Origin: a virus
Taxonomy: Duplodnaviria; Heunggongvirae; Uroviricota; Caudoviricetes
Length of the DNA stretch: 64,000 nucleotides
IMG/VR virus record: IMGVR_UViG_2645727636_000004
Location: 76,925-140,924 of that record
Direction: 5' to 3' (one strand)
A program made the translations under genes and the position numbers. Numbering within the stretch: position 1 is the stretch's first letter; each line of letters opens with the position of its first letter. Positions 3-45,874 of this stretch are shown in pieces. Under the pieces are notes generated by a model that worked only from the letters and a program-made list of their open reading frames with translations, made no database searches and was not told the DNA's origin.

Positions 3-815
3 CAACGTATTACAAACTTAGTTTCGTACTTTAAAGGTGAATATGCTTTACATCCAGATACTCCATCAGTGAACGTTGATGGTACTTATTTTAGTATTGG
101 TAAAATGAAATACGAAGATTTACCTGAACCAGTTAAAATAGAATTTCAAACTAAGACATTAAATATGTATTATCTAAGCGATATAACAGAAGAACAGAAA
201 GTAGAATTATACTATCGTTTAAATAATGGTGTGTACCTAAGTGTTCACCAGAAGAATAAAGCAGTTATGGGTGTAAGCGCATCTATTAAACTAAATAAAT
301 TATCAGAACACCCATTTATGACGAAGAATGCATATTTTACTCCATCACAAAAACGTAAAGGAGAAGATCAAGCAGTATTACTTCAAACTTTAATGTTATT
401 TGATGAAGAATATGAGTTGAAGTCATTTGCTAGTGATGAATTAACAAAGTATGCTGAAAGACTACATGAAGAAGTGAATGAAGTGATTTTTGAAGCTTTA
501 GAAAAAGCTATGTCTGTTTTACATGATGCTTATGGAGATGATTCAGACAAGTTTTTATTAAGAAAGATCAATTTACCTACATTAATATATACAATGAAAC
601 ATTTTGATGATAAAGGCTATAATAAGCAACACCTTATTGAGTGGTTGAAACTTTTCTCCGACACAGTACAAGATAAATCGGATGAGATACCGACTAATTA
701 TAAAGAGTTTGCAGGTTCATGGGGAATTAAGAAGGTAAATGTGTTAGGACGATTAGAATCAATTACAAAGCATTTAGACGAGTTCTATATTCAAAAGGTA
801 AAGATTGAAGTGTAA
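3..815 (+). CDS. hypothetical protein; probably 5'-partial. Frame is open from nt 3, and the GTG at 69 is the first in-frame start but has no RBS.
   Basis: Open frame from the window edge; the ORF track gives 69..815 (248 aa); no Shine-Dalgarno before 69. Confidence 0.5.
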   Translation, partial: QRITNLVSYFKGEYALHPDTPSVNVDGTYFSIGKMKYEDLPEPVKIEFQTKTLNMYYLSDITEEQKVELYYRLNNGVYLSVHQKNKAVMGVSASIKLNKLSEHPFMTKNAYFTPSQKRKGEDQAVLLQTLMLFDEEYELKSFASDELTKYAERLHEEVNEVIFEALEKAMSVLHDAYGDDSDKFLLRKINLPTLIYTMKHFDDKGYNKQHLIEWLKLFSDTVQDKSDEIPTNYKEFAGSWGIKKVNVLGRLESITKHLDEFYIQKVKIEV

Positions 816-843
816 AATTAAATAATAAAATACACAAAATACA

Positions 844-873
844 TTGACTTGTAATTTGTGATTATGGTAATAT
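844..873 (+). promoter_or_regulatory. sigma-A-like promoter: TTGACT, 18-nt spacer, extended -10 TGgTAATAT
   Basis: -35 TTGACT at 844-849; TG at 865-866; -10 TAATAT at 868-873; preceded by AAATACACAAAATACAT at 827-843. Confidence 0.6.
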
Positions 874-6749: not shown

Positions 6750-7149
6750 TTATGGAAAAAGTATTCTGCTATTTGATTCAGATATGCCTAATATTGAACA
6801 TATAACAATTGCAGAAAGATGTGAATATAAAGTGGGAGATCACATAGCTATAGTGAACATTAATAGAGTAGATAATGCTGAAGAGAATGGATTTTACGAA
6901 GGAGTTGATTACAAAATAACTAATACTGTTGGAGATAGAGACATTATAATTACCAATAACAAAACAGAATTGTGGATAAAAGAAAATGAATTTCCATATA
7001 TCAAACAAGTAAATTCTCTTGCCCCAATTATAAGTGAAACGACTGTTGATAGCACAAAAGATATTCAAAAATTAATTGATGAAGCTTTAGATTGTAGGGA
7101 TTTTAAAACTCTTGAAAAATTAGTAACTAAGCTAAACGCAATTAAATAA
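6730..7149 (+). CDS. hypothetical protein; start uncertain (GTG 6730 or ATG 6784)
   Basis: Long ORF; no good RBS at either candidate start. Confidence 0.5.
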   Translation: MPFYIEVYGKSILLFDSDMPNIEHITIAERCEYKVGDHIAIVNINRVDNAEENGFYEGVDYKITNTVGDRDIIITNNKTELWIKENEFPYIKQVNSLAPIISETTVDSTKDIQKLIDEALDCRDFKTLEKLVTKLNAIK

Positions 7150-13102: not shown

Positions 13103-13134
13103 AGTAGGATGAATTTATCTTACTTCTTTTTTAT
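13103..13134 (+). terminator. intrinsic terminator (8-bp stem with one G-U pair, then TCTTTTTTAT)
   Basis: Stem AGTAGGAT at 13103-13110 pairs with ATCTTACT at 13117-13124; a T-run follows. Confidence 0.5.
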
Positions 13135-13156
13135 ATAATAAAATACATAAAATATG

Positions 13157-13185
13157 TTGTAATAAACAAATTTGTGTGGTAATAT
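13157..13185 (+). promoter_or_regulatory. sigma-A-like promoter: TTGTAA, 17-nt spacer, extended -10 TGgTAATAT
   Basis: -35 at 13157-13162; TG at 13177-13178; -10 at 13180-13185 (same extended -10 as at 865-873); AAATACATAA at 13141-13150 lies 6 nt upstream of the -35. Confidence 0.6.
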
Positions 13186-23120: not shown

Positions 23121-23151
23121 TAATATTTCCCTTTTATAAAATTAAATAAAG

Positions 23152-23197
23152 AAATACATAATTAATACTTGATTTTATGTATTTTGTTAATTATACT
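23152..23197 (+). promoter_or_regulatory. perfect palindrome of the AAATACATAA motif overlapping a sigma-A-like promoter (TTGATT, 17-nt spacer, TATACT)
   Basis: Arms at 23152-23161 and 23175-23184 (TTATGTATTT) with a 13-nt spacer; -35 at 23169-23174; -10 at 23192-23197. Confidence 0.5.
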
Positions 23198-30538: not shown

Positions 30539-30635
30539 ATAAAATAAATAATAAAATACATAAAAAATGCTTTACAATACACAAAATAATGGATATACTA
30601 TTATTAATAAAGAAATTATAAAGGGGTTGCAAATA

Positions 30636-31709
30636 ATGGTTATGGTTAATCACAATACTTCATATATGGGCAACTACATAGGAGATTATATAGAAGAGTT
30701 TTTAAAAGTAAAAGGTAAAAAGTCTTTTAATACAGAAAAAACTTATAGGTCTAGTTTGAATCAAGTGTTTAAGGACATCTTAGGTAACAATGATTATATT
30801 TATATAACAGATAAAAATATTGAACATGACTTACGTTCAGAAATTTTGTTTGAATATTTCGATTCATTATATGATGCAGAAAAAGAAGATGGTACTAGGA
30901 TGTATGCTAATCAGACGATTAATAGTAGACAATCTGCGATTAAGTCATTGATCACTTATTTAAAGACAAAGAAAATAGATGGAGAAAATTTAATAAAGTA
31001 TGATTTAGATGATTTGAAAGTAATTGAATCGCTTAAGAACATAGGCGAAGAAATAGAAATGATACCATTTGAATTATCAATGGAATACATTGAATATTTT
31101 GGAAAAGAAGAACAGGGCTTAGAGAAATCATTAATTATTGAATTAGCTATAGACTCCGCACTTAGAGCATCTGAATTATTAAAGATAGAATGGTCAAATT
31201 TCACACCAGTAGAAGACGGAGTTATTATGAAGTCTCATGGTTACAATAAAGGAAAAGGCAATGAAGAATGGATAGACAAGATATCCTTTGAACTATATAA
31301 TAAGTTGTTACAACTAAAAGAAATTGGAAATACGAATAAATTATTTACTTTGACTTACAAAAAATTAGTCGGGATGATGGATAGGGCTAATAAGCTATTA
31401 AATAATACAGATTTAGAATACTCTTTCCATTCATTTAAAAAATTATCCGTTACGATGTGTTATTTAAACAATGGAAATTGCATAGATTCAGCAATGAAAA
31501 AGGCTCGACATAAAAATGTAAATACCACTATGAGATATCTAAGATTAACCAATCTGAATGTTACAGGTATTATATCTGCAAAAATGACTACTGCTGAAGA
31601 ATTATATAAAACAGCTTCACATGAATTATTATTAGAATGTTTAGAAGAAATGCGTCCAGAGATGCTTTTATTACTAAATAATAAAATCAAGAATAAAATA
31701 ACAAAATGA
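30636..31709 (+). CDS. tyrosine site-specific recombinase (integrase/Xer-like), catalytic residues intact (357 aa)
   Basis: R in ALRASEL; H in FHSFKK; RHKNVNTTMRYLRL matches the box II R-H...Y signature; ATG at 30636 preceded by AAAGGGGttgcaaataATG (the track's start at 30567 has no RBS). Confidence 0.75.
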   Translation: MVMVNHNTSYMGNYIGDYIEEFLKVKGKKSFNTEKTYRSSLNQVFKDILGNNDYIYITDKNIEHDLRSEILFEYFDSLYDAEKEDGTRMYANQTINSRQSAIKSLITYLKTKKIDGENLIKYDLDDLKVIESLKNIGEEIEMIPFELSMEYIEYFGKEEQGLEKSLIIELAIDSALRASELLKIEWSNFTPVEDGVIMKSHGYNKGKGNEEWIDKISFELYNKLLQLKEIGNTNKLFTLTYKKLVGMMDRANKLLNNTDLEYSFHSFKKLSVTMCYLNNGNCIDSAMKKARHKNVNTTMRYLRLTNLNVTGIISAKMTTAEELYKTASHELLLECLEEMRPEMLLLLNNKIKNKITK

Positions 31710-31776
31710 ATAAATTTATGTGACATTATAGATGATAAATGGTAAAATCAACATAGTATTGAAAGGAGTTTTTTAA

Positions 31777-33123
31777 ATGAAAATCAATAAAGATAGAGAA
31801 TCTTTAGAGACAGAAGTAAAAAGTCTAATTTCTTTATTTGCTACAACTGTAGATAAAAAAGAATTTGACTTAATTGTAGAGCATTTAAATAGTAAACATG
31901 GAATTAAAAAGTCTAATGTTTATATGTTACTTAACAACTCAAATAATGTATCTAAATTAACATTAGAAGAATTAGCATTATTCGGAAAACAATTAACTGT
32001 AAAATTAGGAATTGATAATATTGAATGGATGAATACTTGGTTCACTGAAAGAGAAATTAAAGAATTCGAAAGATTTCAATTTGTTGATATGCAATCAATT
32101 GATGATCTAGATTTCCCTATAACGCTTTCCAATGTAACTTATCTTGGAAATGGATACTATAATTTAACAATTACAAGACAATTGCTTGGTAGGTTATATA
32201 AATACGGTAAATTAAACTACAATCCAAATGTACAACGTGGAATGAGAAAAGTCTATCGTTATGGTAAAGAGATGGAAGAACCAATTGTATTTAAAAGTAA
32301 AGTAACTGAAATGAGTAAATTGACATTAGAAGATAAATTAGAACCATCAACAATAACATTAAATGCAGCACAAATGTCGTCTGATGAAGGTGAAGAACTA
32401 ATTTACGATGAAAAATCGCACAAATTAACAATAAATTCAGGGACAATTTTAGATATCGTAGACGGAATGCATAGAACGTTAGCAACATATAGTGCATATT
32501 CAAAAGATAAAGACATTAACGGATCTTATCCAATTACTATTTCTAACAAATCAGATGAAGAAATTCAGAGATATCAAGTAAATATGGATAAACAAACTCC
32601 ATTAACAAGAAGTAAGATTGTCGAGTATTCAGGTGGGCATGTTAGTAATGTGATTAATATTTTAAAATCTAAAGGTGAATTAAAAGACAGAATTAGTTCA
32701 GTAGGAGACAGTAAGGCAACTTTACGCGGTAGTGATATTATCCCTTATAAAATGCTACATGCTGCTATTAGTAATGTTTATAATATTGATTCTGTACTTC
32801 AATCAAGAAAAGTTGCAGATGAAATAAATGAATATCTAGTATATCTATTTGGGTATTTTGGTAAGCACGAAAGAGATGAATATAAAGTATTGTTTGATGC
32901 AGATTTATTCGAAGCTCATTTAACTTTGGCTAGTAAGATGAAAGAGAATAAAATTCCGTATGACAAACTGTCTGAAATAATTAAAATTGAAGCATTTAAT
33001 ATAGAGAATAAATTCTGGAAAGATACAAATGTAATCAATAATGAAGGTAAAGTAGTAAACAAGAAAATGAGAAGGAAGATAAGTGATTTCTTTGAAGGTA
33101 TGTTAGAGGAGGCAGAATTGTAG
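31777..33123 (+). CDS. DGQHR-domain (DndB-like, ParB/Srx-fold) protein with an extra N-terminal domain (448 aa)
   Basis: NVQRGMRKVYRYGKEM followed about 70 aa later by ILDIVDGMHRTLA, paralleling the QR...DGQHR layout of the DndB family; RBS GAAAGGAGttttttaaATG. Confidence 0.55.
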   Translation: MKINKDRESLETEVKSLISLFATTVDKKEFDLIVEHLNSKHGIKKSNVYMLLNNSNNVSKLTLEELALFGKQLTVKLGIDNIEWMNTWFTEREIKEFERFQFVDMQSIDDLDFPITLSNVTYLGNGYYNLTITRQLLGRLYKYGKLNYNPNVQRGMRKVYRYGKEMEEPIVFKSKVTEMSKLTLEDKLEPSTITLNAAQMSSDEGEELIYDEKSHKLTINSGTILDIVDGMHRTLATYSAYSKDKDINGSYPITISNKSDEEIQRYQVNMDKQTPLTRSKIVEYSGGHVSNVINILKSKGELKDRISSVGDSKATLRGSDIIPYKMLHAAISNVYNIDSVLQSRKVADEINEYLVYLFGYFGKHERDEYKVLFDADLFEAHLTLASKMKENKIPYDKLSEIIKIEAFNIENKFWKDTNVINNEGKVVNKKMRRKISDFFEGMLEEAEL

Positions 33124-34100
33124 TGTATAACAGAGAATATAAAATGAAATTTATTGAAACTTTAGATGTTAAAGAAATAAGTGAGGAGCGTTATGTTTAT
33201 CTTTTTGAAAAAACAGCGGAAGTTGAATTTAAAATTAATAAAGATTTGTTTGATATGAATTTCGAAGAATTGGAAATTACTTTTTATGCAGCTAAGAGAA
33301 GTAAGCATCGATCACTAATTTCATATATTACAACTATAAAAAATTACATTACATGGGCTAAAGATAATGGTTATGGCGTATCACCAGTTCATCCAATCGT
33401 GGAATCTATCAATACTTCTTTTGTTGATAAATACTTATATAAAGAAGGATTAACTTATTATACAAGAGAAGCTTTACTTATGAATATTGAAAAGCTTATA
33501 AATGTTCGTGATAAAGCAATCGTTTTAGCAGTGTTTGAGGGGATCAGAGGTAAGGCTTTATCTGAATTAACTAATTTACGATATGAAGATTTATCTGAAA
33601 AAGAAGGTAAATATTATGCATCATTGCTTTCTGATGAAATTAATTTAGATAATCGTCAAATTGAAATATCTAAAGAGTTATACGACTTATTTGTTCAAAC
33701 TTATAGAAAAACAGAGTACATTGGAAAGAAAGGAAATGTTACTCGTGTTGCTGATGGAGAATATATATTAAGAAAGAATCGAGTAGGTGAAGGTGATATT
33801 AGATTTACAGTCAGTATGATTAATAGTTTATTCTCGGGCATCATTAAAACTGAGTTTGAAGATGCTCAAATAACAGTAACCTCATTAATTGAATCTGGGG
33901 CAATGTGGTATACAAATTCATTACTAAAAGATGACAGAGTTATTACTAAAGAAATAGCTACCAATGTAATGAATAGATACGGTTTATACTCGTTCAAAGG
34001 TGAAAAGAAAAGTTATCCTTCATTTATGAGATATAAAGAAGTTATAAATGATGAATTTTTTGAAGATAACTATGGCAGCTTTAAATATGAATTTAAATAA
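33123..34100 (+). CDS. tyrosine-recombinase-like protein, apparently degenerate (box I Arg retained, box II His/Arg/His not found); GTG start with stop/start overlap (325 aa)
   Basis: DKAIVLAVFEGIRGKALSELTNLRYEDL resembles recombinase box I; no HxxR...Y found downstream; RBS GAGGAGG lies 9 nt before the GTG. Confidence 0.5.
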   Translation: MYNREYKMKFIETLDVKEISEERYVYLFEKTAEVEFKINKDLFDMNFEELEITFYAAKRSKHRSLISYITTIKNYITWAKDNGYGVSPVHPIVESINTSFVDKYLYKEGLTYYTREALLMNIEKLINVRDKAIVLAVFEGIRGKALSELTNLRYEDLSEKEGKYYASLLSDEINLDNRQIEISKELYDLFVQTYRKTEYIGKKGNVTRVADGEYILRKNRVGEGDIRFTVSMINSLFSGIIKTEFEDAQITVTSLIESGAMWYTNSLLKDDRVITKEIATNVMNRYGLYSFKGEKKSYPSFMRYKEVINDEFFEDNYGSFKYEFK

Positions 34101-34142: not shown

Positions 34143-34267
34143 CATAAAAATAAATAAATGATTGTACAATGTTTGATTTTTGCTAAATTTATTCAAAGAA
34201 ATAGAAATGGAGAATATTTCTAGGAACAATCAAACGAAAAATAAGAACAAATGTTTGCATTTCTATA

Positions 34268-34296
34268 TTGACAATACTGTATATGGTTGGTAAAAT
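34268..34296 (+). promoter_or_regulatory. strong sigma-A-like promoter: TTGACA, 17-nt spacer, TAAAAT
   Basis: Consensus -35 at 34268-34273; -10 at 34291-34296; lies in a 250-bp non-coding gap. Confidence 0.6.
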
Positions 34297-34367
34297 TGTA
34301 TCAATAGAGATGATAGTAGATGCTACATCTATACTAAAATTAATGGAAAATGGAGGAATATTACAAT

Positions 34368-34817
34368 ATGAGTGCACTTTTAGTATCATTTGAAGCTAAT
34401 CTAGTAATAAAAGATAAAAGTCCAGAAGAGTTGGAGGAGTTGTTTGATGGATTGCTACCGTCAAACGGACTCCATATGAAAAACATAAAGGGTAGAAAAT
34501 TATTAGTTGAATGTATGGATTCGCAATTTACAGAGATTTTAGAAATCGATGAAGATGGACAAGAAGTAACTTTTTTAAATCGTAAACCAGAATTAAAATA
34601 TTATCCTTCAACAAATAATACTTTTAAAACTAATGATATGATTAGGATTAATGGGAAAGGTGACTACAATATCATCTTGACTCCTATGTTTGCATTTTTA
34701 TACAACGGCGAAACACAGACTACTATTGAGATGGACAACGTAAAAAATATCAATGATACGAAGCTATATCTAGAACAAAACTATCCGGAATACATAGTGC
34801 TTCGTAAGATTACCTGA
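34368..34817 (+). CDS. hypothetical protein (149 aa)
   Basis: ATG at 34368 preceded by aaatGGAGGaatattacaatATG. Confidence 0.55.
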   Translation: MSALLVSFEANLVIKDKSPEELEELFDGLLPSNGLHMKNIKGRKLLVECMDSQFTEILEIDEDGQEVTFLNRKPELKYYPSTNNTFKTNDMIRINGKGDYNIILTPMFAFLYNGETQTTIEMDNVKNINDTKLYLEQNYPEYIVLRKIT

Positions 34818-34922: not shown

Positions 34923-35132
34923 ATGATTAAAAAGTATAGTAAAAAGCGATATGAAGATTTTGGACTGTTCATTTCTCCTAATAGACGTGGAGATGGGTTT
35001 AAAATAATAAGAGATGAGGATGGTTGGATATTTGACAAAACTTACAAAGATAAAGACTCAGCGCAAAGATGGATAGATGAAATGATTGATCTTATAGATA
35101 ATTCAAAAGCTAAATGGGAAGCAAATACATAA
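34923..35132 (+). CDS. hypothetical protein (69 aa)
   Basis: AAAGGTGG lies 7 nt before ATG 34923; motif at 34900-34909. Confidence 0.5.
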   Translation: MIKKYSKKRYEDFGLFISPNRRGDGFKIIRDEDGWIFDKTYKDKDSAQRWIDEMIDLIDNSKAKWEANT

Positions 35133-35159
35133 AATACATAATGACTGAGGTAAATATAT

Positions 35160-35549: not shown

Positions 35550-35578
35550 AAATACATATACATAAAGGTGAGATAAGA

Positions 35579-36053: not shown

Positions 36054-36227
36054 ATGGACTTTAATAAATTTAACGGAAAGAAGATTCTTAAGGCAAGCAA
36101 TGAAATTGAGTTACATGAAAACATTATAGAATGTAATAGGAATGGATGGCAAGTTGGTAGTAATATGCGATACATATCAAACGATTATCGTCCATTTCAA
36201 ATACTAATGAAATACACAGGATTTTAA
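36054..36227 (+). CDS. hypothetical protein (57 aa)
   Basis: RBS AAAGAGGatgcagatATG. Confidence 0.4.
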   Translation: MDFNKFNGKKILKASNEIELHENIIECNRNGWQVGSNMRYISNDYRPFQILMKYTGF

Positions 36228-36256
36228 AATACATATACATAATGAGGAGAATTAGT

Positions 36257-37919: not shown

Positions 37920-38116
37920 AAGCGAATATCGTAAATTAAATAATAAAATACATAAAATGCACTTGAAATTAATAAGTTGTTAGATTAAGATATATTTAAC
38001 AAATGAAACGAAGAAATGATAATTATAACATTCTCATTATAAATAAATAGTTGTTATGTAGCAAAAGTCGGTGATTAATTAATAAAATACATAATAATGA
38101 AATGGAGATGTTGACG

Positions 38117-38308
38117 ATGTATGAAGAGATAAAGCAGGTTAGTAGTGACCCCATAATAGATGATAAACTAAGACAAGCTATGATTAAGCAAATGGAAATA
38201 GGTTATCAACAAATGTATGAAATCAATCTTCAAATGGCAAACGACATGTTTCATCTGGAAAGTGAAGCTGAAACAATTAATGATAATATTGTAAAAGGTG
38301 AATGGTAA
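38117..38308 (+). CDS. hypothetical protein (63 aa)
   Basis: ATG at 38117 preceded by aatGGAGatgttgacgATG; motif at 38085-38094. Confidence 0.5.
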   Translation: MYEEIKQVSSDPIIDDKLRQAMIKQMEIGYQQMYEINLQMANDMFHLESEAETINDNIVKGEW

Positions 38309-38435
38309 GTTAACTAAAGAAGACTATGTTGCTTTAATAGTAAATACTATAAATTAATATTAACTGTTAAAGCAATGTGGATTTTAATAAACGGATGTTT
38401 TTAATTTAAAAATACATAAGAATAGAGGTGTAAAA

Positions 38436-38687
38436 ATGGTTATACATTTATTAGATGAAATGCGATTCAATAGAAAGACATCTCAGCAATACATTATTAC
38501 ATACGAAACTAAAGAAACTATTAAAGAAATATCTAAGTTAGGTTCAATTACATACAAATCACCAGTATTAAATGTTTTATTTATTGATACATATAAAAGT
38601 AAAAATGAGTTACTTAAGATCGAAGGAGTGATGAGTGTAACCGTACCAACGAAAGGTAAGTTATTAAATAATAAGGAAAGATATTGA
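38436..38687 (+). CDS. hypothetical protein (83 aa)
   Basis: RBS atAGAGGtgtaaaaATG; motif at 38410-38419. Confidence 0.55.
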   Translation: MVIHLLDEMRFNRKTSQQYIITYETKETIKEISKLGSITYKSPVLNVLFIDTYKSKNELLKIEGVMSVTVPTKGKLLNNKERY

Positions 38688-38708
38688 TATGGAAAGGTGG
38701 GATCTGTA

Positions 38709-39017
38709 GTGAGTAAAATTACACTAAATCAGTTTATATATGATAAAATTAATGAATTACTAAATACATATAAAGAAGTAGAATTTCATAGTGCGAACGA
38801 TGTAATGTTAACAAAAGGCGGATGTTCAGAACAATTTACATCCAAAGCAACAGATTTAAATAAGATAGGACAAGGTATTAGTATTCATGACGTTGATAAT
38901 ACAGAACGTTTCCCATTTAAAGAAAATGGAACTAAGGTATTGTTTAATATAAAGCGTCCACGTAAACGAAAGTTTGAATTACATACTGAATACTTTATCT
39001 GGGATCGAGAAGGGTAA
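38709..39017 (+). CDS. hypothetical protein (GTG start; the track's start at 38697 abuts the RBS)
   Basis: AGGTGGG at 38693-38699, then GTG 38709. Confidence 0.5.
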   Translation: MSKITLNQFIYDKINELLNTYKEVEFHSANDVMLTKGGCSEQFTSKATDLNKIGQGISIHDVDNTERFPFKENGTKVLFNIKRPRKRKFELHTEYFIWDREG

Positions 39018-39021
39018 ATAG

Positions 39022-39648
39022 ATGGATAAATTAACAAATGAAGAATTAGTGGAGTTATATAAGAAAGGCAAAGAAGAGGCAGGAAATGAATTATTTAATA
39101 GGAATAAAGGTTTAATCTATGAAATCGTAAGAAAGTTTAATAATAAGTCTAGGTTGAGCGAAGAAGATATAATAAGTGCATCTTACTATGGATTTGCAAA
39201 AGCTATTAAAACTTTTAATGAATCAAAAGGAATAAAATTCTCTACATACTGTTACACTGTTATGAAAAATGAAGTATGTAAAAGTTTAGAATACTACAAA
39301 TATAAGAAGAATGATGACTCAGATTTTATTATTTCATCATTAGACCTTAAGATATCTTTAGAAAATAAAAAATCTTCTTTGATAGAAATATTGGACGCTT
39401 CAGATAACGATGTATTACATAAAAATGACTATACATACTTACATAATGCAATAGAATACGCAAGGACACTGATAATTGAAAAGTATCATCCGTACTTATT
39501 ACCATTGCTATTTAGAGAAACAACTACGTATGAAGTAGCTCCAATTATTGGGGTAAGTCCAAGAACAGTGCATTATACAACTACAATGTTTAGAGAGCAT
39601 GTGCGTGAATATATTTATCATTATTCAAATGGTGAAATAGTTTCCTAG
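39022..39648 (+). CDS. phage-encoded sigma-70-family RNA polymerase sigma factor (208 aa)
   Basis: Region 2-like LVELYKKGKEEAGNELFNRNKGLIYEIVRKF...DIISASYYGFAKAIKTFNESKGIKFSTYCYTVMKNEV; C-terminal HTH-like TYEVAPIIGVSPRTVHYTTTMFREHV (region 4). Confidence 0.7.
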   Translation: MDKLTNEELVELYKKGKEEAGNELFNRNKGLIYEIVRKFNNKSRLSEEDIISASYYGFAKAIKTFNESKGIKFSTYCYTVMKNEVCKSLEYYKYKKNDDSDFIISSLDLKISLENKKSSLIEILDASDNDVLHKNDYTYLHNAIEYARTLIIEKYHPYLLPLLFRETTTYEVAPIIGVSPRTVHYTTTMFREHVREYIYHYSNGEIVS

Positions 39649-39690
39649 TTTTAAATGAAAGAATGATATTAATGAAAGGATTTGATAAAC

Positions 39691-39948
39691 GTGAAATTTA
39701 ATAGAGGTACATATAACAGAATTAGTGAGGAAGCAAGTCTACTTAGTATGACAGCGTCTCAATTATCACTAGCTTTTGAATTAGATGATAAAGAACATTT
39801 GAAGGATAAAGAACTACTTAGTGGATATGAAGAACGTCAATTAGTCTTAATCAAAGATAGTATTGCTCGTATATATGCGACTCTAGAGTTATGGGAGGTA
39901 GAAGGGCATATTGACCATGCATTTGAGCATAAAGGAGAAGAAAAATAA
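39691..39948 (+). CDS. hypothetical protein (GTG start)
   Basis: AAAGGA lies 9 nt before GTG 39691. Confidence 0.5.
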   Translation: MKFNRGTYNRISEEASLLSMTASQLSLAFELDDKEHLKDKELLSGYEERQLVLIKDSIARIYATLELWEVEGHIDHAFEHKGEEK

Positions 39949-39951
39949 AAA

Positions 39952-39969
39952 AAGGATGATTTCATCCTT
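39952..39969. terminator. bidirectional hairpin AAGGATGA-TT-TCATCCTT flanked by an A-run (5' side) and T-rich sequence (3' side)
   Basis: Perfect 8-bp stem; AAAAAAA precedes it, so the minus-strand reading gives stem plus T-run; it lies at the convergent junction of the + gene ending at 39948 and the minus gene ending at 39962. Confidence 0.55.
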
Positions 39970-40123
39970 TAGGTTTATTCTCAGACTTCTTATTAAGATG
40001 TTCTAGTGCTTCAATATACTTCTTGGCGATTTCTAATTCATCTTTAGAAATATCATTGAACAAATTTTTCAATGCAAGATGCTCATCACAATTAACTTTA
40101 TTAGTATTAAGTTTTTCAGACAT
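39962..40123 (-). CDS. small minus-strand protein (53 aa) with its own promoter-like sequence and terminator
   Basis: Translation MSEKLNTNKVNCDEHLALKNLFNDISKDELEIAKKYIEALEHLNKKSENKPKG; RBS AAAGGA lies 12 nt upstream on the minus strand; an extended -10 TGaTATAAG on the minus strand sits near + coordinates 40144-40152. Confidence 0.5.
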   Translation of the reverse strand: MSEKLNTNKVNCDEHLALKNLFNDISKDELEIAKKYIEALEHLNKKSENKPKG

Positions 40124-42341: not shown

Positions 42342-43589
42342 TTGAATACACAATTTGAAGAAAAGAAGTTGCTGAAATTACTAGGAAGTGAATTAGTAGA
42401 TTTATTTAAAAAGTACAATGTATTTGTAGCAGGTGGAGCTATTACAAGTATTTTTACTAATAGTGAAATTAATGATATTGATGTTTACACTCGTAATGAA
42501 GATGATTTATTGGGACTTATCGAAGAACTATTTGATCACTGTGGAAATAAAGTTTTAAGTAGTACGAAAAAATCTACATTATTTGCAGATGGAGAGTTAT
42601 TAGTTCAAGCAATACATTTCAAATGCTTTGATACAGCAGAAGATATTTTTGATTCATTTGACTTCACATCAGTTATGGGAGCATATGATTTCAAAGATAA
42701 TAAGTATTATTTCCATGATGATTTCATGAAACATAACTCTCAAAAAATTATCAAGTTTAATTCAAATACTGCATACCCATTAATTTCAGCATTACGTGTT
42801 CAAAAGTATGAAGATAAAGGGTATAAGATTTCCAAAGCTGAATATCTACGAATTGTCATGACATGTATGAAATTAGAAATTAACTCATATGAGGAATTAC
42901 AGGAACATTTAGGTGGAATGTATGGTGTTAATCTAGACAAACTGTTTGAAGATATTAAAGATGATGAGTTTAGTTTACAAGCAGCTATTGAAAAGTTGGC
43001 AGAAATTACATTGTCAGATGAGTACTTTGAGAAACCTGAGCTTGAGTTCATTTTAGAATTAGACGAAGTAATTAGTAAAATTTCACCTAAAGCAATTAAA
43101 TATGTTGAGTTTAAAGGTAAGATTTATCGTGTACATAATAGTGGAGAAATTGATGAAGAAAGTGTCAAATACGACAATCACACAATGTTAGATATTAAAG
43201 ACATATTCAAAGATAATAAGTTATATAAATTTGTTAAAAAGAATGAAGATGGTACATACAGTAGTTACTACGATGATAAATTTACATATAAGATTGGCGA
43301 AATAGCAGAAGCAAATGGAGCAGTTGGTACATATTCTTGTGATAAAGGTAAATTGCACTTTAACACAAAAGAGAAAATTAAAAAGTCTACATATTTTGAT
43401 AAGAAAGATAAAGTTTTATTAGAAGTAATGTTCAATACAGATGATTTGCTTGATATTGATCATTCTACAAAAGTGACAGCTCGTAAAGTATATGTTGTTC
43501 GTGAAGTGCCAGAATTGGAATGGAAAATGTGGATCGGGAATAAACATGTCTCAAAAGAAGGAGCATATTGTGATTCACCTCTGTTTTAA
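42342..43589 (+). CDS. Pol-beta-superfamily nucleotidyltransferase-like protein (head domain resembling CCA-adding/poly(A) polymerase), 415 aa
   Basis: The N-terminal VFVAGGAITSIFTNSEINDIDVYT parallels the GGxVRD...DxD motif of class II nucleotidyltransferases; TTG start after AAAAGGAGaataaacataTTG. Confidence 0.45.
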   Translation: MNTQFEEKKLLKLLGSELVDLFKKYNVFVAGGAITSIFTNSEINDIDVYTRNEDDLLGLIEELFDHCGNKVLSSTKKSTLFADGELLVQAIHFKCFDTAEDIFDSFDFTSVMGAYDFKDNKYYFHDDFMKHNSQKIIKFNSNTAYPLISALRVQKYEDKGYKISKAEYLRIVMTCMKLEINSYEELQEHLGGMYGVNLDKLFEDIKDDEFSLQAAIEKLAEITLSDEYFEKPELEFILELDEVISKISPKAIKYVEFKGKIYRVHNSGEIDEESVKYDNHTMLDIKDIFKDNKLYKFVKKNEDGTYSSYYDDKFTYKIGEIAEANGAVGTYSCDKGKLHFNTKEKIKKSTYFDKKDKVLLEVMFNTDDLLDIDHSTKVTARKVYVVREVPELEWKMWIGNKHVSKEGAYCDSPLF

Positions 43590-44159: not shown

Positions 44160-44204
44160 TATTTCAGTTTTATTTAAGAAAATATATAAAAGGAGATTGA
44201 TTAA

Positions 44205-44363
44205 TTGAGGGCAATATTATCGTTATTGATTATAACAGTAATAATTACATATGTAATAACATTTATATTTCCATCATTAAAGAATTATATTAAATCAGAA
44301 GTAAATAGAATTAACAAAGTATACAATACAAAATCAAACGATGAAGAGGAGAATGTAAAATGA
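44205..44363 (+). CDS. small single-TM membrane protein (52 aa), translationally coupled to the SPFH gene
   Basis: Translation MRAILSLLIITVIITYVITFIFPSL... with an acidic tail; RBS AAAGGAGattgattaaTTG; its stop overlaps the ATG of the next gene. Confidence 0.45.
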   Translation: MRAILSLLIITVIITYVITFIFPSLKNYIKSEVNRINKVYNTKSNDEEENVK

Positions 44364-45181
44364 GCTTAAAAGGTATTTTAGGTTTAGTAGGCACAGGAAT
44401 TGGAGTATTAGGTTTATCAATTGGACTTATGGTATTTGTCGAAAAAGTACCTGAAGGTAAGGTTGCTGTAGTCTATAGTCCATCTAATGGAGCTAAAGAA
44501 GTGTTAAATCCAGGATGGCACTTAGTAGGATTATTAGAGAAGACTCAAGAATATCCAACACGTGTTACTATCGTGAAAGATAATATTAGTGTAACTACAG
44601 AAGATGGAAAGAAAATCACTATGCCTGTTCGTTATGAAATGAAAGTTGATAAATCTAAAGTATTAGATATTTTTAAAGAGTTAGGATCACAAAAAATCGA
44701 ACAAATTCAAGAAGGTTATCTAGCACAAAAACTTTTTAAATCAGCACGAGAAGTTGTTTCAGGTTACTCTGTATTAGATATTTATGGAACTAAAACTTCT
44801 GAAGCATCTGCAAAAGTAACTGAATTAATGGCTAAAGAATCTGATAAACTAGGATTCATCATTGCAGATGTAACACTTGGTACTCCTGAACTGGATGAAA
44901 ACACACAAAAAGCAATTGATGCACGAGTACAAGCTTCACAAGAATTAGAAAAGTTAAAATTAGAGAAACAAATTGCAGCTGAACAAGCAGAGAAGAAACG
45001 TATTGAAGCCAAAGGTACTGCCGATGCTAAAATTGAAAAAGCTAAAGGTGAATCAGAGGCAAATAAATTATTAAGCAACTCTATTACTCCTGAATTACTT
45101 AAACTTAAAGAAATGGAAGCACGAATGGAGCATGGTTGGGTTTCTGTACAAGGAGCTAATACTACAGTAGTGAAGGAATAG
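44360..45181 (+). CDS. SPFH/band-7 (stomatin/prohibitin/HflC-like) membrane protein (273 aa)
   Basis: An N-terminal TM segment, then VAVVYSPSNGAKEVLNPGWHLVGLLEKTQEYPTRV... and a long coiled-coil Ala/Glu/Lys-rich C-terminus, typical of band-7 proteins. Confidence 0.7.
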   Translation: MSLKGILGLVGTGIGVLGLSIGLMVFVEKVPEGKVAVVYSPSNGAKEVLNPGWHLVGLLEKTQEYPTRVTIVKDNISVTTEDGKKITMPVRYEMKVDKSKVLDIFKELGSQKIEQIQEGYLAQKLFKSAREVVSGYSVLDIYGTKTSEASAKVTELMAKESDKLGFIIADVTLGTPELDENTQKAIDARVQASQELEKLKLEKQIAAEQAEKKRIEAKGTADAKIEKAKGESEANKLLSNSITPELLKLKEMEARMEHGWVSVQGANTTVVKE

Positions 45182-45817: not shown

Positions 45818-45846
45818 AAATTAAATAATAAAATACATAAAAATAC

Positions 45847-45874
45847 TTGTAATATTAAAATAAGATGTTATAAT
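45847..45874 (+). promoter_or_regulatory. sigma-A-like promoter: TTGTAA, 16-nt spacer, extended -10 TGtTATAAT
   Basis: -35 at 45847-45852; TG at 45866-45867; -10 at 45869-45874; AAATACATAA at 45831-45840 lies 6 nt upstream. Confidence 0.6.

Follow-up and report, generated by a model that had tools for sequence, protein, structure and literature searches.

The 64,000-nucleotide stretch of viral DNA studied here, hereafter the window, covers positions 76,925 to 140,924 of the IMG/VR record IMGVR_UViG_2645727636_000004. It encodes a 208-aa sigma-70-family factor (positions 39022-39648) and carries many copies of a box built around the 10-mer AAATACATAA. An earlier note, made from the letters of the DNA, had proposed that this motif is the recognition element of the phage sigma factor. 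We analysed the gene, the box and the adjoining promoters together, and favour, with moderate confidence, a different reader for the box, namely a repressor of the SroF/MrpR family that is encoded in the same window.

The sigma factor gene and its operon

Profile searches bore out the earlier description of the product as a protein with sigma-70 region 2 and a region-4-like helix-turn-helix (HTH). Pfam Sigma70_r2 (PF04542) matched aa 24-88, a segment that spans the KFSTYCYTVMKNEV block, with 40.3 bits (cut-off: 24), and NCBIfam TIGR02937 (sigma70-ECF superfamily) matched aa 20-197 with 57.8 bits (cut-off: 42.9), taking in profile positions 2-164/165 and with them the C-terminal HTH. PHROG 351 ('RNA polymerase sigma factor') matched the open reading frame (ORF) at 1e-25. 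Of the two Pfam profiles that had been suggested as a check, only that for region 2 found its target; Sigma70_r4 had no match in the ORF in the Pfam profile search, so that the label 'region-4-like' rests on TIGR02937, on the fold and on sigma-H (3mzy), which was aligned to aa 48-198 when a profile of 24 sigma homologs was searched against the PDB and matched sigma factors. The AlphaFold model consists of two helical domains (predicted local distance difference test score ~85), the sigma-2 domain at aa 1-96 and the sigma-4-like HTH domain at aa 138-202 with predicted helices at 138-163, 169-176 and 180-202, joined by a disordered linker. All top Foldseek matches of the model in the PDB were sigma factors. 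Judged from the profile matches, the region-4 domain is divergent; within the alignment of homologs it is the best-conserved portion of the family and nearly invariant. From profiles and model, we conclude that the ORF is predicted to encode a genuine two-domain (sigma-2 + sigma-4) sigma-70-family factor.

The identical protein, named 'sigma-70 family RNA polymerase sigma factor [Lysinibacillus agricola]' by NCBI, is encoded both by the chromosome of L. agricola (5.29 Mb) and by a contig in GCA_001278875.1 (199.5 kb), and the window is therefore a prophage. The sigma gene itself is ordinary and has been annotated already; the re-assignment of the motif is the more interesting result.

The operon is headed by a sigma-A-type promoter with one box in front of it and a second box in the leader (Table 1). 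This promoter is kept in at least four relatives and apparently also in L130-L132, there as TTGATT-17-TAAGAT, and it is the likely source of sigma transcription after repression lifts. The first gene of the operon encodes an AimX/YosL-like MazE mimic with BLASTP matches to the C-terminus of SPbeta YosL and to phi3T AimX, and it carries the motif GY..M..IN...E.EAE.I. An inverted repeat of 9 bp, TTGCTTTAA ... TTAAAGCAA, whose loop measures ~30 nt, lies in the 127-nt spacer between this gene and the next box (38309-38435) and is possibly an attenuator. Since a further box directly precedes the 83-aa gene, the sigma gene sits behind a copy of the motif. The order of the cassette (83 aa, 102/106 aa, sigma, 85/88 aa and then the convergent 53-aa gene) is kept in the window and in both extra contigs mapped. 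The three cassette partners of sigma (83, 106 and 88 aa) had no Pfam or PHROG match; the conserved adjacency of the 106-aa protein makes it a possible sigma partner.

Table 1 Positions of the sigma operon, the repressor operon, the sigma-A-type promoters and other features of the window
Feature	Position	Strand	Evidence
Box (AAATACACAA variant), 6 nt, then TTGACT-17-TAATAT (promoter 844)	818-872	+	
Box, 6 nt, then TTGTAA-17-TAATAT (promoter 13157)	13131-13185	+	
Box, 7 nt, then TTGATT-17-TATACT (promoter 23169)	23142-23197	+	
Box preceding promoter 30571 of the yopP/Q/R-like (SroD/E/F-like) operon, 7 nt from the -35	30544-30563	+	
Sigma-A-type promoter TTTACA-17-TATACT of the repressor operon (promoter 30571)	30571-30599	+	Conserved in relatives
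YopP/SroD-like tyrosine-recombinase-fold protein	30636-31709	+	
YopQ/SroE-like protein	31777-33123	+	phrog_5732
SroF/MrpR(YopR)-family master-repressor homolog, proposed box reader	33123-34100	+	Pfam, alignment, synteny
SOS/LexA-like box GAACAAATGTTT, 11 nt 5' of the -35 at 34268	34245-34256	+	Comparison with SPbeta SOS-box table (PMC8270828)
Sigma-A-type promoter TTGACA-17-(TG)TAAAAT (promoter 34268), strongest canonical, without box	34268-34296	+	
20-bp box with the perfect consensus TTAAATAATAAAATACATAA, upstream of the sigma-operon promoter (7 nt to the -35)	37936-37955	+	Motif search
Sigma-A-type promoter TTGAAA-17-TAAGAT heading the sigma operon (promoter 37963)	37963-37991	+	Promoter scan, relatives
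Leader box abutting the Shine-Dalgarno of the MazE-like gene, the second box of a box-promoter-box unit	38075-38094	+	
63-aa antitoxin, an AimX/YosL-like MazE mimic, at the head of the operon	38117-38308	+	Pfam PF27083 MazE_antitoxin_C; BLASTP
Box directly before the Shine-Dalgarno of the 83-aa gene (motif at 38410)	38400-38419	+	
83-aa protein, first gene of the cassette	38436-38687	+	ORF call, conserved order
106-aa protein, 4-nt gap to sigma	38697-39017	+	ORF call, conserved order
Sigma-70-family factor, 208 aa, ATG start	39022-39648	+	Profiles, fold, PDB matches
88-aa protein, 3' of sigma, last gene of the cassette	39682-39948	+	ORF call, conserved order
8-bp hairpin between cassette and convergent gene; T-run on the minus strand only	39951-39970	.	
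53-aa gene convergent to the cassette	39962-40123	-	
Accessory/defence-like genes	42342-43589; L129 7867-8916 (its 3' part being the truncated ORF at window 69-815); 44360-45181		
Perfect 20-bp box, 6 nt, then TTGTAA-16-(TG)TATAAT (promoter 45847)	45821-45874	+	In all relatives

The repeated box and the promoters beside it

The 10-mer AAATACATAA occurs in 35 exact copies in the window, 33 of them on the plus strand, compared with 1.36 expected; none of 100 shuffles reached 35. About 12 more copies with one mismatch lie in the same context, and in total the 64 kb contain roughly 45-50 boxes. To define the element, we put the 117 exact sites found in the window and in seven related loci into one alignment. 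The box proved to be a 20-bp asymmetric sequence, TTA-N7-AAATACATAA (full consensus: TTAaatAAtAAAATACATAA), in which TTA at -10 to -8 and A at -3 are conserved upstream of the motif, with no information upstream of -11. Allowing up to four mismatches, the 20-bp consensus was found 30 times on the plus and twice on the minus strand of the window, versus 4.0 times in shuffles. The boxes are co-oriented with the genes, and their strand flips together with the genes in a divergent cluster. Among the relatives the 10-mer never changes, while sigma identity is 50-74%. Slipped or duplicated boxes at 35123-35141, 35550-35565 and 36227-36242 (AAATACATAAAATACATAA; AAATACATATACATAA twice) suggest local repeat expansion of an ACATA(A/T) unit. 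The 14-mer AATAAAATACATAA, searched across IMG/VR, gave only single chance matches among the matches listed.

The boxes take two positions. A Shine-Dalgarno sequence starts 0-10 nt 3' of the box in 69 of the 117 sites (within 0-3 nt in 29 of these 69), and a sigma-A-type promoter starts 4-8 nt 3' of the box in 21 of the 117, with ~1.5 expected. Both positions are joined in box-promoter-box-Shine-Dalgarno composites at 37946/38085 in the window and at 7120/7178 and 16543/16591 in L140. The intergenic regions with pre-Shine-Dalgarno boxes have short flanks on both sides. Since sigma-A promoters upstream of the pre-Shine-Dalgarno boxes were not above shuffled controls, these boxes are not hidden host promoters. 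In a generic promoter and terminator scan of the window (29% GC), counts were not above shuffles and intrinsic terminators were very few.

Each of the promoters 844, 13157, 23169, 30571, 37963 and 45847 has a box 6-7 nt 5' of its -35. The sole inverted box pair is at promoter 23169, with one copy 5' of the -35 (23152-23161, plus strand) and the other inside the promoter spacer (23175-23184, minus strand); it directly follows the terminator-like T-run after the DNA ligase gene. Promoter 34268 drives a 155-aa ORF (34350-34817), the first gene after the repressor gene, which occupies the place of the LexA-controlled antirepressor Sar/YopT of phi3T and SPbeta; the ORF had no sequence similarity to phi3T Sar and no PHROG or Pfam match. 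The earlier note had assigned the genes behind 844, 13157, 34268 and 45847 to early units that depend on the host sigma-A, as opposed to genes served by the phage sigma. The promoters are indeed of the sigma-A type (844, 13157 and 45847 early, 34268 strong), but the proposed split falls away, since at three of the four the motif lies just upstream of the -35, and the remaining one has an SOS-like box instead. By analogy with SPbeta, the wiring of the four promoters is that of an SPbeta-type repressor/antirepressor switch and not an early-versus-middle split.

Candidate readers of the box

Gene content and gene order mark the window as the early region of a Lysinibacillus prophage of the SPbeta type. 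The last gene of the yopP-yopQ-yopR synteny at 30636-34100 encodes a protein that matched Pfam MrpR_N_CB with 58.1 bits (cut-off: 27) and MrpR_C_cat with 24.1 bits, just under the cut-off of 27, and that aligns over its full length to phi3T SroF (26% identity, E 8e-19). In SPbeta, MrpR (YopR) binds the SPBRE element in vivo and in vitro, as demonstrated by chromatin affinity precipitation sequencing (ChAP-seq) and electrophoretic mobility shift assays, with 10 ChAP-seq peaks and ~10 sites bound (PMC10516654). SroF, the same protein as MrpR/YopR, binds as a monomer and reads 24 of the 26 bp of the phi3T box CAGTAATTTTATTTTTATTCTTAATG (bioRxiv 10.1101/2025.11.27.690993).

Both known elements resemble the window box in layout. 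In the 58-100 kb stretch of phi3T (42 kb) that we examined, the reverse complement of CAGTAATTTTATTTTTATTCTTAATG occurs 13 times, never on the other strand; every copy points the way of the genes, and the copies, among them those before aimR and the sro operon, take pre-Shine-Dalgarno, pre--35 and box-promoter-box positions. Phi3T and the window thus share asymmetric, AT-rich boxes of 20-26 bp in many copies, co-oriented with early genes and placed in the same ways, a SroF-family gene in yopP-yopQ-yopR synteny and an SOS-box promoter directly after the repressor gene; they differ in that the box density of the window is ~2-fold higher, in the sense-strand MazF site of the window box, which the phi3T box does not have, and in the sigma factor, no homolog of which turned up for phi3T in tblastn of the phage collection. 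In the SPBc2 record, SPBRE reads CAAATACAAAWAATATGTATATA; it is gene-oriented, immediately precedes either a Shine-Dalgarno or a -35, and controls early promoters as well as the repressor operon. It has AAATACA in common with the window box and follows the same orientation rule in the same two positions, although it is a quasi-palindrome, ATACA-N7-TGTAT; a palindrome of this type (ATACA-N6-8-TGTAT) is absent from the window. Besides its own SPBRE, SPbeta (NC_001884, L007/L008) has ~12 phi3T-type boxes aGAATAAAAATAAAaTTA before ribosome-binding sites, with a strand bias of 14:0 for AAAATAAAAT, and one half-SPBRE before yosL. The SPbeta-like Mammaliicoccus phage phi36 (PV389078; L136-L138) carries, in early regions, 72 co-oriented copies of ATAAAATAT (repeat aaAGATAAAATATAAa) at positions as in the window; its late region has no more than a handful. 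A conserved leader, GTTACAAATACATTWCAAAG, lies between some phi36 promoters and the repeat, and an unrelated 496-aa protein annotated as sigma factor (phrog_5767) is found at the YonO position of this phage.

The window box has the marks of such an operator: a cognate SroF-family gene, a long co-oriented repeat and abutment of the -35 or the Shine-Dalgarno. Arguing by analogy, we hold it somewhat probable that the box is this lineage's SPBRE/Phi3TRE-type operator of the SroF/MrpR repressor, and that the sigma factor, a genuine one, is expressed from a box-flanked sigma-A-type operon and serves other promoters. A SroF/MrpR monomer would read the 20-bp box; the boxes adjoining the -35 of early promoters of the sigma-A type would prevent initiation, and those in leaders and between cistrons, 5' of ribosome-binding sites, may act as roadblocks.

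Several observations weigh against this assignment. The SroF homolog is only 26% identical to phi3T SroF. Aligned by eye, the boxes of the window and of phi3T agree in 13 of 20 positions, a match that is unconvincing by itself in AT-rich DNA. At 45-50 in 64 kb, the boxes are denser than the 10 SPbeta peaks; most of them lie between cistrons, with no recognisable promoter to repress, and no published proof was found that SroF occupies intercistronic copies, even in phi3T. The co-variation of box and repressor described below rests on a single split. Every Lysinibacillus relative found has both sigma and box, so that their co-occurrence is compatible with the sigma factor as the reader (the two further contigs chosen via SroF in the search for sigma-less relatives with the box both have the sigma cassette), and the box holds a TAAAAT placed so that transcription could start at its 3' end.

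These last points belong to the explanation that stands closest to the earlier proposal, namely that the box is a -10-only middle or late promoter, like the late promoters of T4, read by the sigma factor. TAAAAT (box positions -2 to 3) would be the -10, ACATAA the discriminator and the 3' end of the box the start site, giving very short leaders that begin at the Shine-Dalgarno; SroF might overlap such an element. The motif is abundant, co-oriented and gene-adjacent like T4 or SPO1 promoters, wAAAAT with A at -1 is present in 80 of the 117 sites and T3 is invariant, the pre-Shine-Dalgarno boxes have no other recognisable promoter, and the phage encodes its own sliding clamp and an RNA polymerase alpha C-terminal domain (alpha-CTD) protein. 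Like T4 gp55 and SPO1 gp28 and gp33/34, the window sigma is a small early phage protein of the sigma-70 family accompanied by an abundant gene-proximal candidate target. The T4 gp55 promoter TATAAATA consists of a -10 only, and gp55 has no sigma-4, whereas the promoters of SPO1 gp28 and gp33/34 are bipartite. The window sigma, unlike gp55, has a conserved sigma-4-like domain, and the window box, unlike the SPO1 promoters, has no -35: in the 117 sites no -35-like block was found upstream of the box at any spacing, and a search for a shared -35 or other k-mers upstream of it found enriched ones only from orthologous flanks. Since the sigma-4-like domain is the best-conserved part of the protein and the box nevertheless lacks a -35 partner, the sigma factor is an unlikely reader of the box. 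The spacing sets a further constraint. A leader that contains the Shine-Dalgarno is possible only if TAAAAT is the -10 and the start is at the box end; because the Shine-Dalgarno follows so closely, within 0-3 nt in the 29 sites mentioned above, the start would fall at the last box base, and the most conserved bases would serve as discriminator, which is unusual.

Comparison among phages also speaks against the sigma factor. The layout recurs in phi3T, SPbeta and phi36, where sigma was not found in what was searched: neither 126 of the 134 kb of SPbeta nor 47 kb of phi36 yielded a homolog in a profile search, and tblastn of the whole phage collection, the only search that covered phi3T, found none in SPbeta-like or Mammaliicoccus phages. 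Moreover, the box subtypes AATAAAATACATAA and AAATAAATACATAA track the SroF clades, L130 and L132 versus L004, L005, L133 and L134, and cut across sigma similarity: the sigma of L130 is closest to that of the window, yet the L130 box differs, and the sigma of L004 groups with that of L132, yet their boxes differ. A box (38410) and the conserved sigma-A-type promoter 37963 both precede the sigma gene itself. The claim that AAATACATAA is the recognition element of sigma is thus not supported, in view of the lack of a -35 block, the closeness of the Shine-Dalgarno, the same layout without sigma and the dependence of the subtype on SroF; even as a -10-only promoter of the sigma factor, the box is quite unlikely. 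A YonO-type promoter was considered as well and rejected, as boxes fill the early clusters, including the one encoding the YonO homolog; YonO uses one late promoter in SPbeta.

The other explanation that we weighed places the selection mainly at the RNA level. Bacillota MazF (EndoA) has a strict 6-nt site, U^ACAUA, and a single copy in the 5' untranslated region is sufficient to make a reporter MazF-sensitive; this specificity was demonstrated for B. subtilis, Listeria and S. aureus only (bioRxiv 10.64898/2026.08.06.743204). The core of the box in sense orientation, UACAUA (box positions 3-8), is exactly this site, flanked by A/U only, and every transcribed box would put a predicted MazF cleavage site into the mRNA just upstream of the ribosome-binding site. 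If selection acted mainly on this site, UACAUA in unstructured leaders would let the host enzyme cut before almost every lytic gene, so that lytic expression would be tied to MazF activity and tuned by the AimX/YosL-like antitoxin encoded at the head of the sigma operon. TACATA is found 130 times on the sense strand of the window versus 36 times on the antisense strand, and 70 times inside sense-strand ORFs, where synonymous-codon shuffles predict 36 (z = 8.0; top of 60 hexamers of the same composition), with none in the yopQ- and yopR-like genes. Enrichment of MazF sites has been reported for SPbeta and phi3T transcripts (bioRxiv 10.1101/2023.04.27.537455). The window shares with these arbitrium phages the hexamer match, the sense-strand enrichment, the depletion in repressor genes and the MazE-mimic gene; it differs in that the published enrichment concerns sites scattered in ORFs, whereas in the window ~40 sites have a fixed place in leaders, within a longer box. 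The natural variants AAATATATAA at 44180, 60312 and 61833 have lost the MazF hexamer in a perfect pre-Shine-Dalgarno context, with the rest of the box kept. MazF alone cannot explain the box, because it needs 6 nt where 20 are conserved, including TTA 10 nt upstream, because boxes also lie 4-8 nt 5' of -35 elements, and because half of the in-context variant boxes break UACAUA; furthermore, the equivalent boxes of phi3T, SPbeta and phi36 have no sense-strand UACAUA. Selection chiefly for MazF cleavage is therefore unlikely. A box with two uses has a better, if still doubtful, claim: it would be a SroF-like operator on DNA and a MazF site 5' of the ribosome-binding sites of ~40 lytic genes on RNA, with the MazE mimic encoded in the same box-controlled operon as sigma and the sigma cassette forming a third, lineage-specific layer.

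The sigma factor in the transcription programme of the prophage

With the box assigned to the repressor, the sigma factor would have to serve other sequences, and inspection of the 25 longest intergenic regions found no second, sigma-specific promoter motif. Host RNA polymerase would make sigma once the prophage is derepressed, and because the cassette is transcribed from a box-flanked sigma-A-type promoter, the protein should appear early after derepression; it would then direct the host core polymerase to promoters other than the box. By analogy with SPbeta, the late genes probably use the YonO-like polymerase, which makes it most likely that sigma serves the host core polymerase as a specificity factor in the middle phase or in an accessory role, possibly acting together with the alpha-CTD protein.

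A different role would be mimicry of host sporulation sigmas, by which the phage would reprogramme dormancy or sporulation genes of its host. Sigma homologs of other Bacillus phages have been proposed to alter dormancy. The best specific NCBIfam models for the window protein are SigK, SigE, SigF and SigG, its sigma-2 domain superposes on pro-sigma-K (root-mean-square deviation 1.6 A) and on the SigE N-terminal domain (1.3 A), and its nearest phage matches, with 34-36% identity across region 2, are sporulation-like sigmas from large myoviruses of Bacillus. Region 2 is like that of B. subtilis SigK and SigE both by sequence and by fold, including the ..TY..x.NE(I/V) signature of region 2.3-2.4. 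However, all scores are far under the equivalog cut-offs (SigK 61.5 vs 298.65 bits, SigE 50.7 vs 348.6, SigF 49.3 vs 321.45); the phage-borne protein has no pro-sequence, its C-terminal domain is unlike that of sporulation sigmas by sequence, Sigma70_r4 having no match, and its gene lies in a lytic early operon. We regard such a mimic as very unlikely.

Further genes of the region agree with the SPbeta-like assignment. YopX is encoded, and the yorF-yorG-yorH-yorI-yorJ-yorK-yorL synteny extends over 47.1-58.2 kb, with genes for YorF, a Sak4-like YorG, YorH, a DnaB-like helicase, a primase, a RecJ-like exonuclease and DnaE. The window is preceded by a divergent early cluster with genes for the alpha-CTD protein, a DnaN clamp and a YonO-like RNA polymerase of the RNA-dependent RNA polymerase (RdRP) fold. 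The cluster is headed, behind a box and a TTGACG-17-(TG)TAATAT promoter, by the 205-aa alpha-CTD protein (L140 5407-6024, which is L129 5050-5667, minus strand), ~2.4 kb upstream of the window start; its C-terminus is an RNA polymerase alpha CTD (Pfam RNA_pol_A_CTD, 72.5 bits), which might bind UP-like DNA or mimic or replace the host alpha-CTD. The single-chain polymerase (L140 18252-20444, running off the locus; Pfam RdRP PF05183, 60.6 bits; 924 aa by gene call) is preceded by a CoiA-like nuclease gene. Accessory or defence-like early genes encode Gad2 (PF26128), GmrSD_N and Band_7/lipoprotein-like proteins, several of them preceded by boxes. A search for close phage relatives of the window by DNA found none, and no relatives were found among viral contigs searched with the DnaN protein. 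The nearest DnaE relatives, PBC2 and LC76P1, are not syntenic and have neither motif nor sigma, and are uninformative; Bacillus phage PBC2 (60-101 kb) has a repeated 13-mer of its own, ATAATGATATAAT, with 8 copies in 41 kb, which is probably a promoter unrelated to the box of the window.

To summarize, the most conspicuous repeat of the 64-kb window is better explained by the recently described monomeric SroF/MrpR repressor than by a sigma switch. If this is correct, the SroF/MrpR system is not confined to Bacillus but reaches Lysinibacillus and apparently also Mammaliicoccus, with operators far more densely spaced than in SPbeta. That a single SPbeta-like genome encodes sigma together with an alpha-CTD protein and a polymerase of the YonO type suggests a more layered transcription programme than that of SPbeta. 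If the box does serve both SroF and MazF, nearly every early gene would be under both prophage repression and host MazF activity; the operator-embedded hexamer and the 2-fold enrichment in ORFs make testable the idea that phages of the SPbeta type may build MazF sensitivity into the transcripts of their lytic genes.

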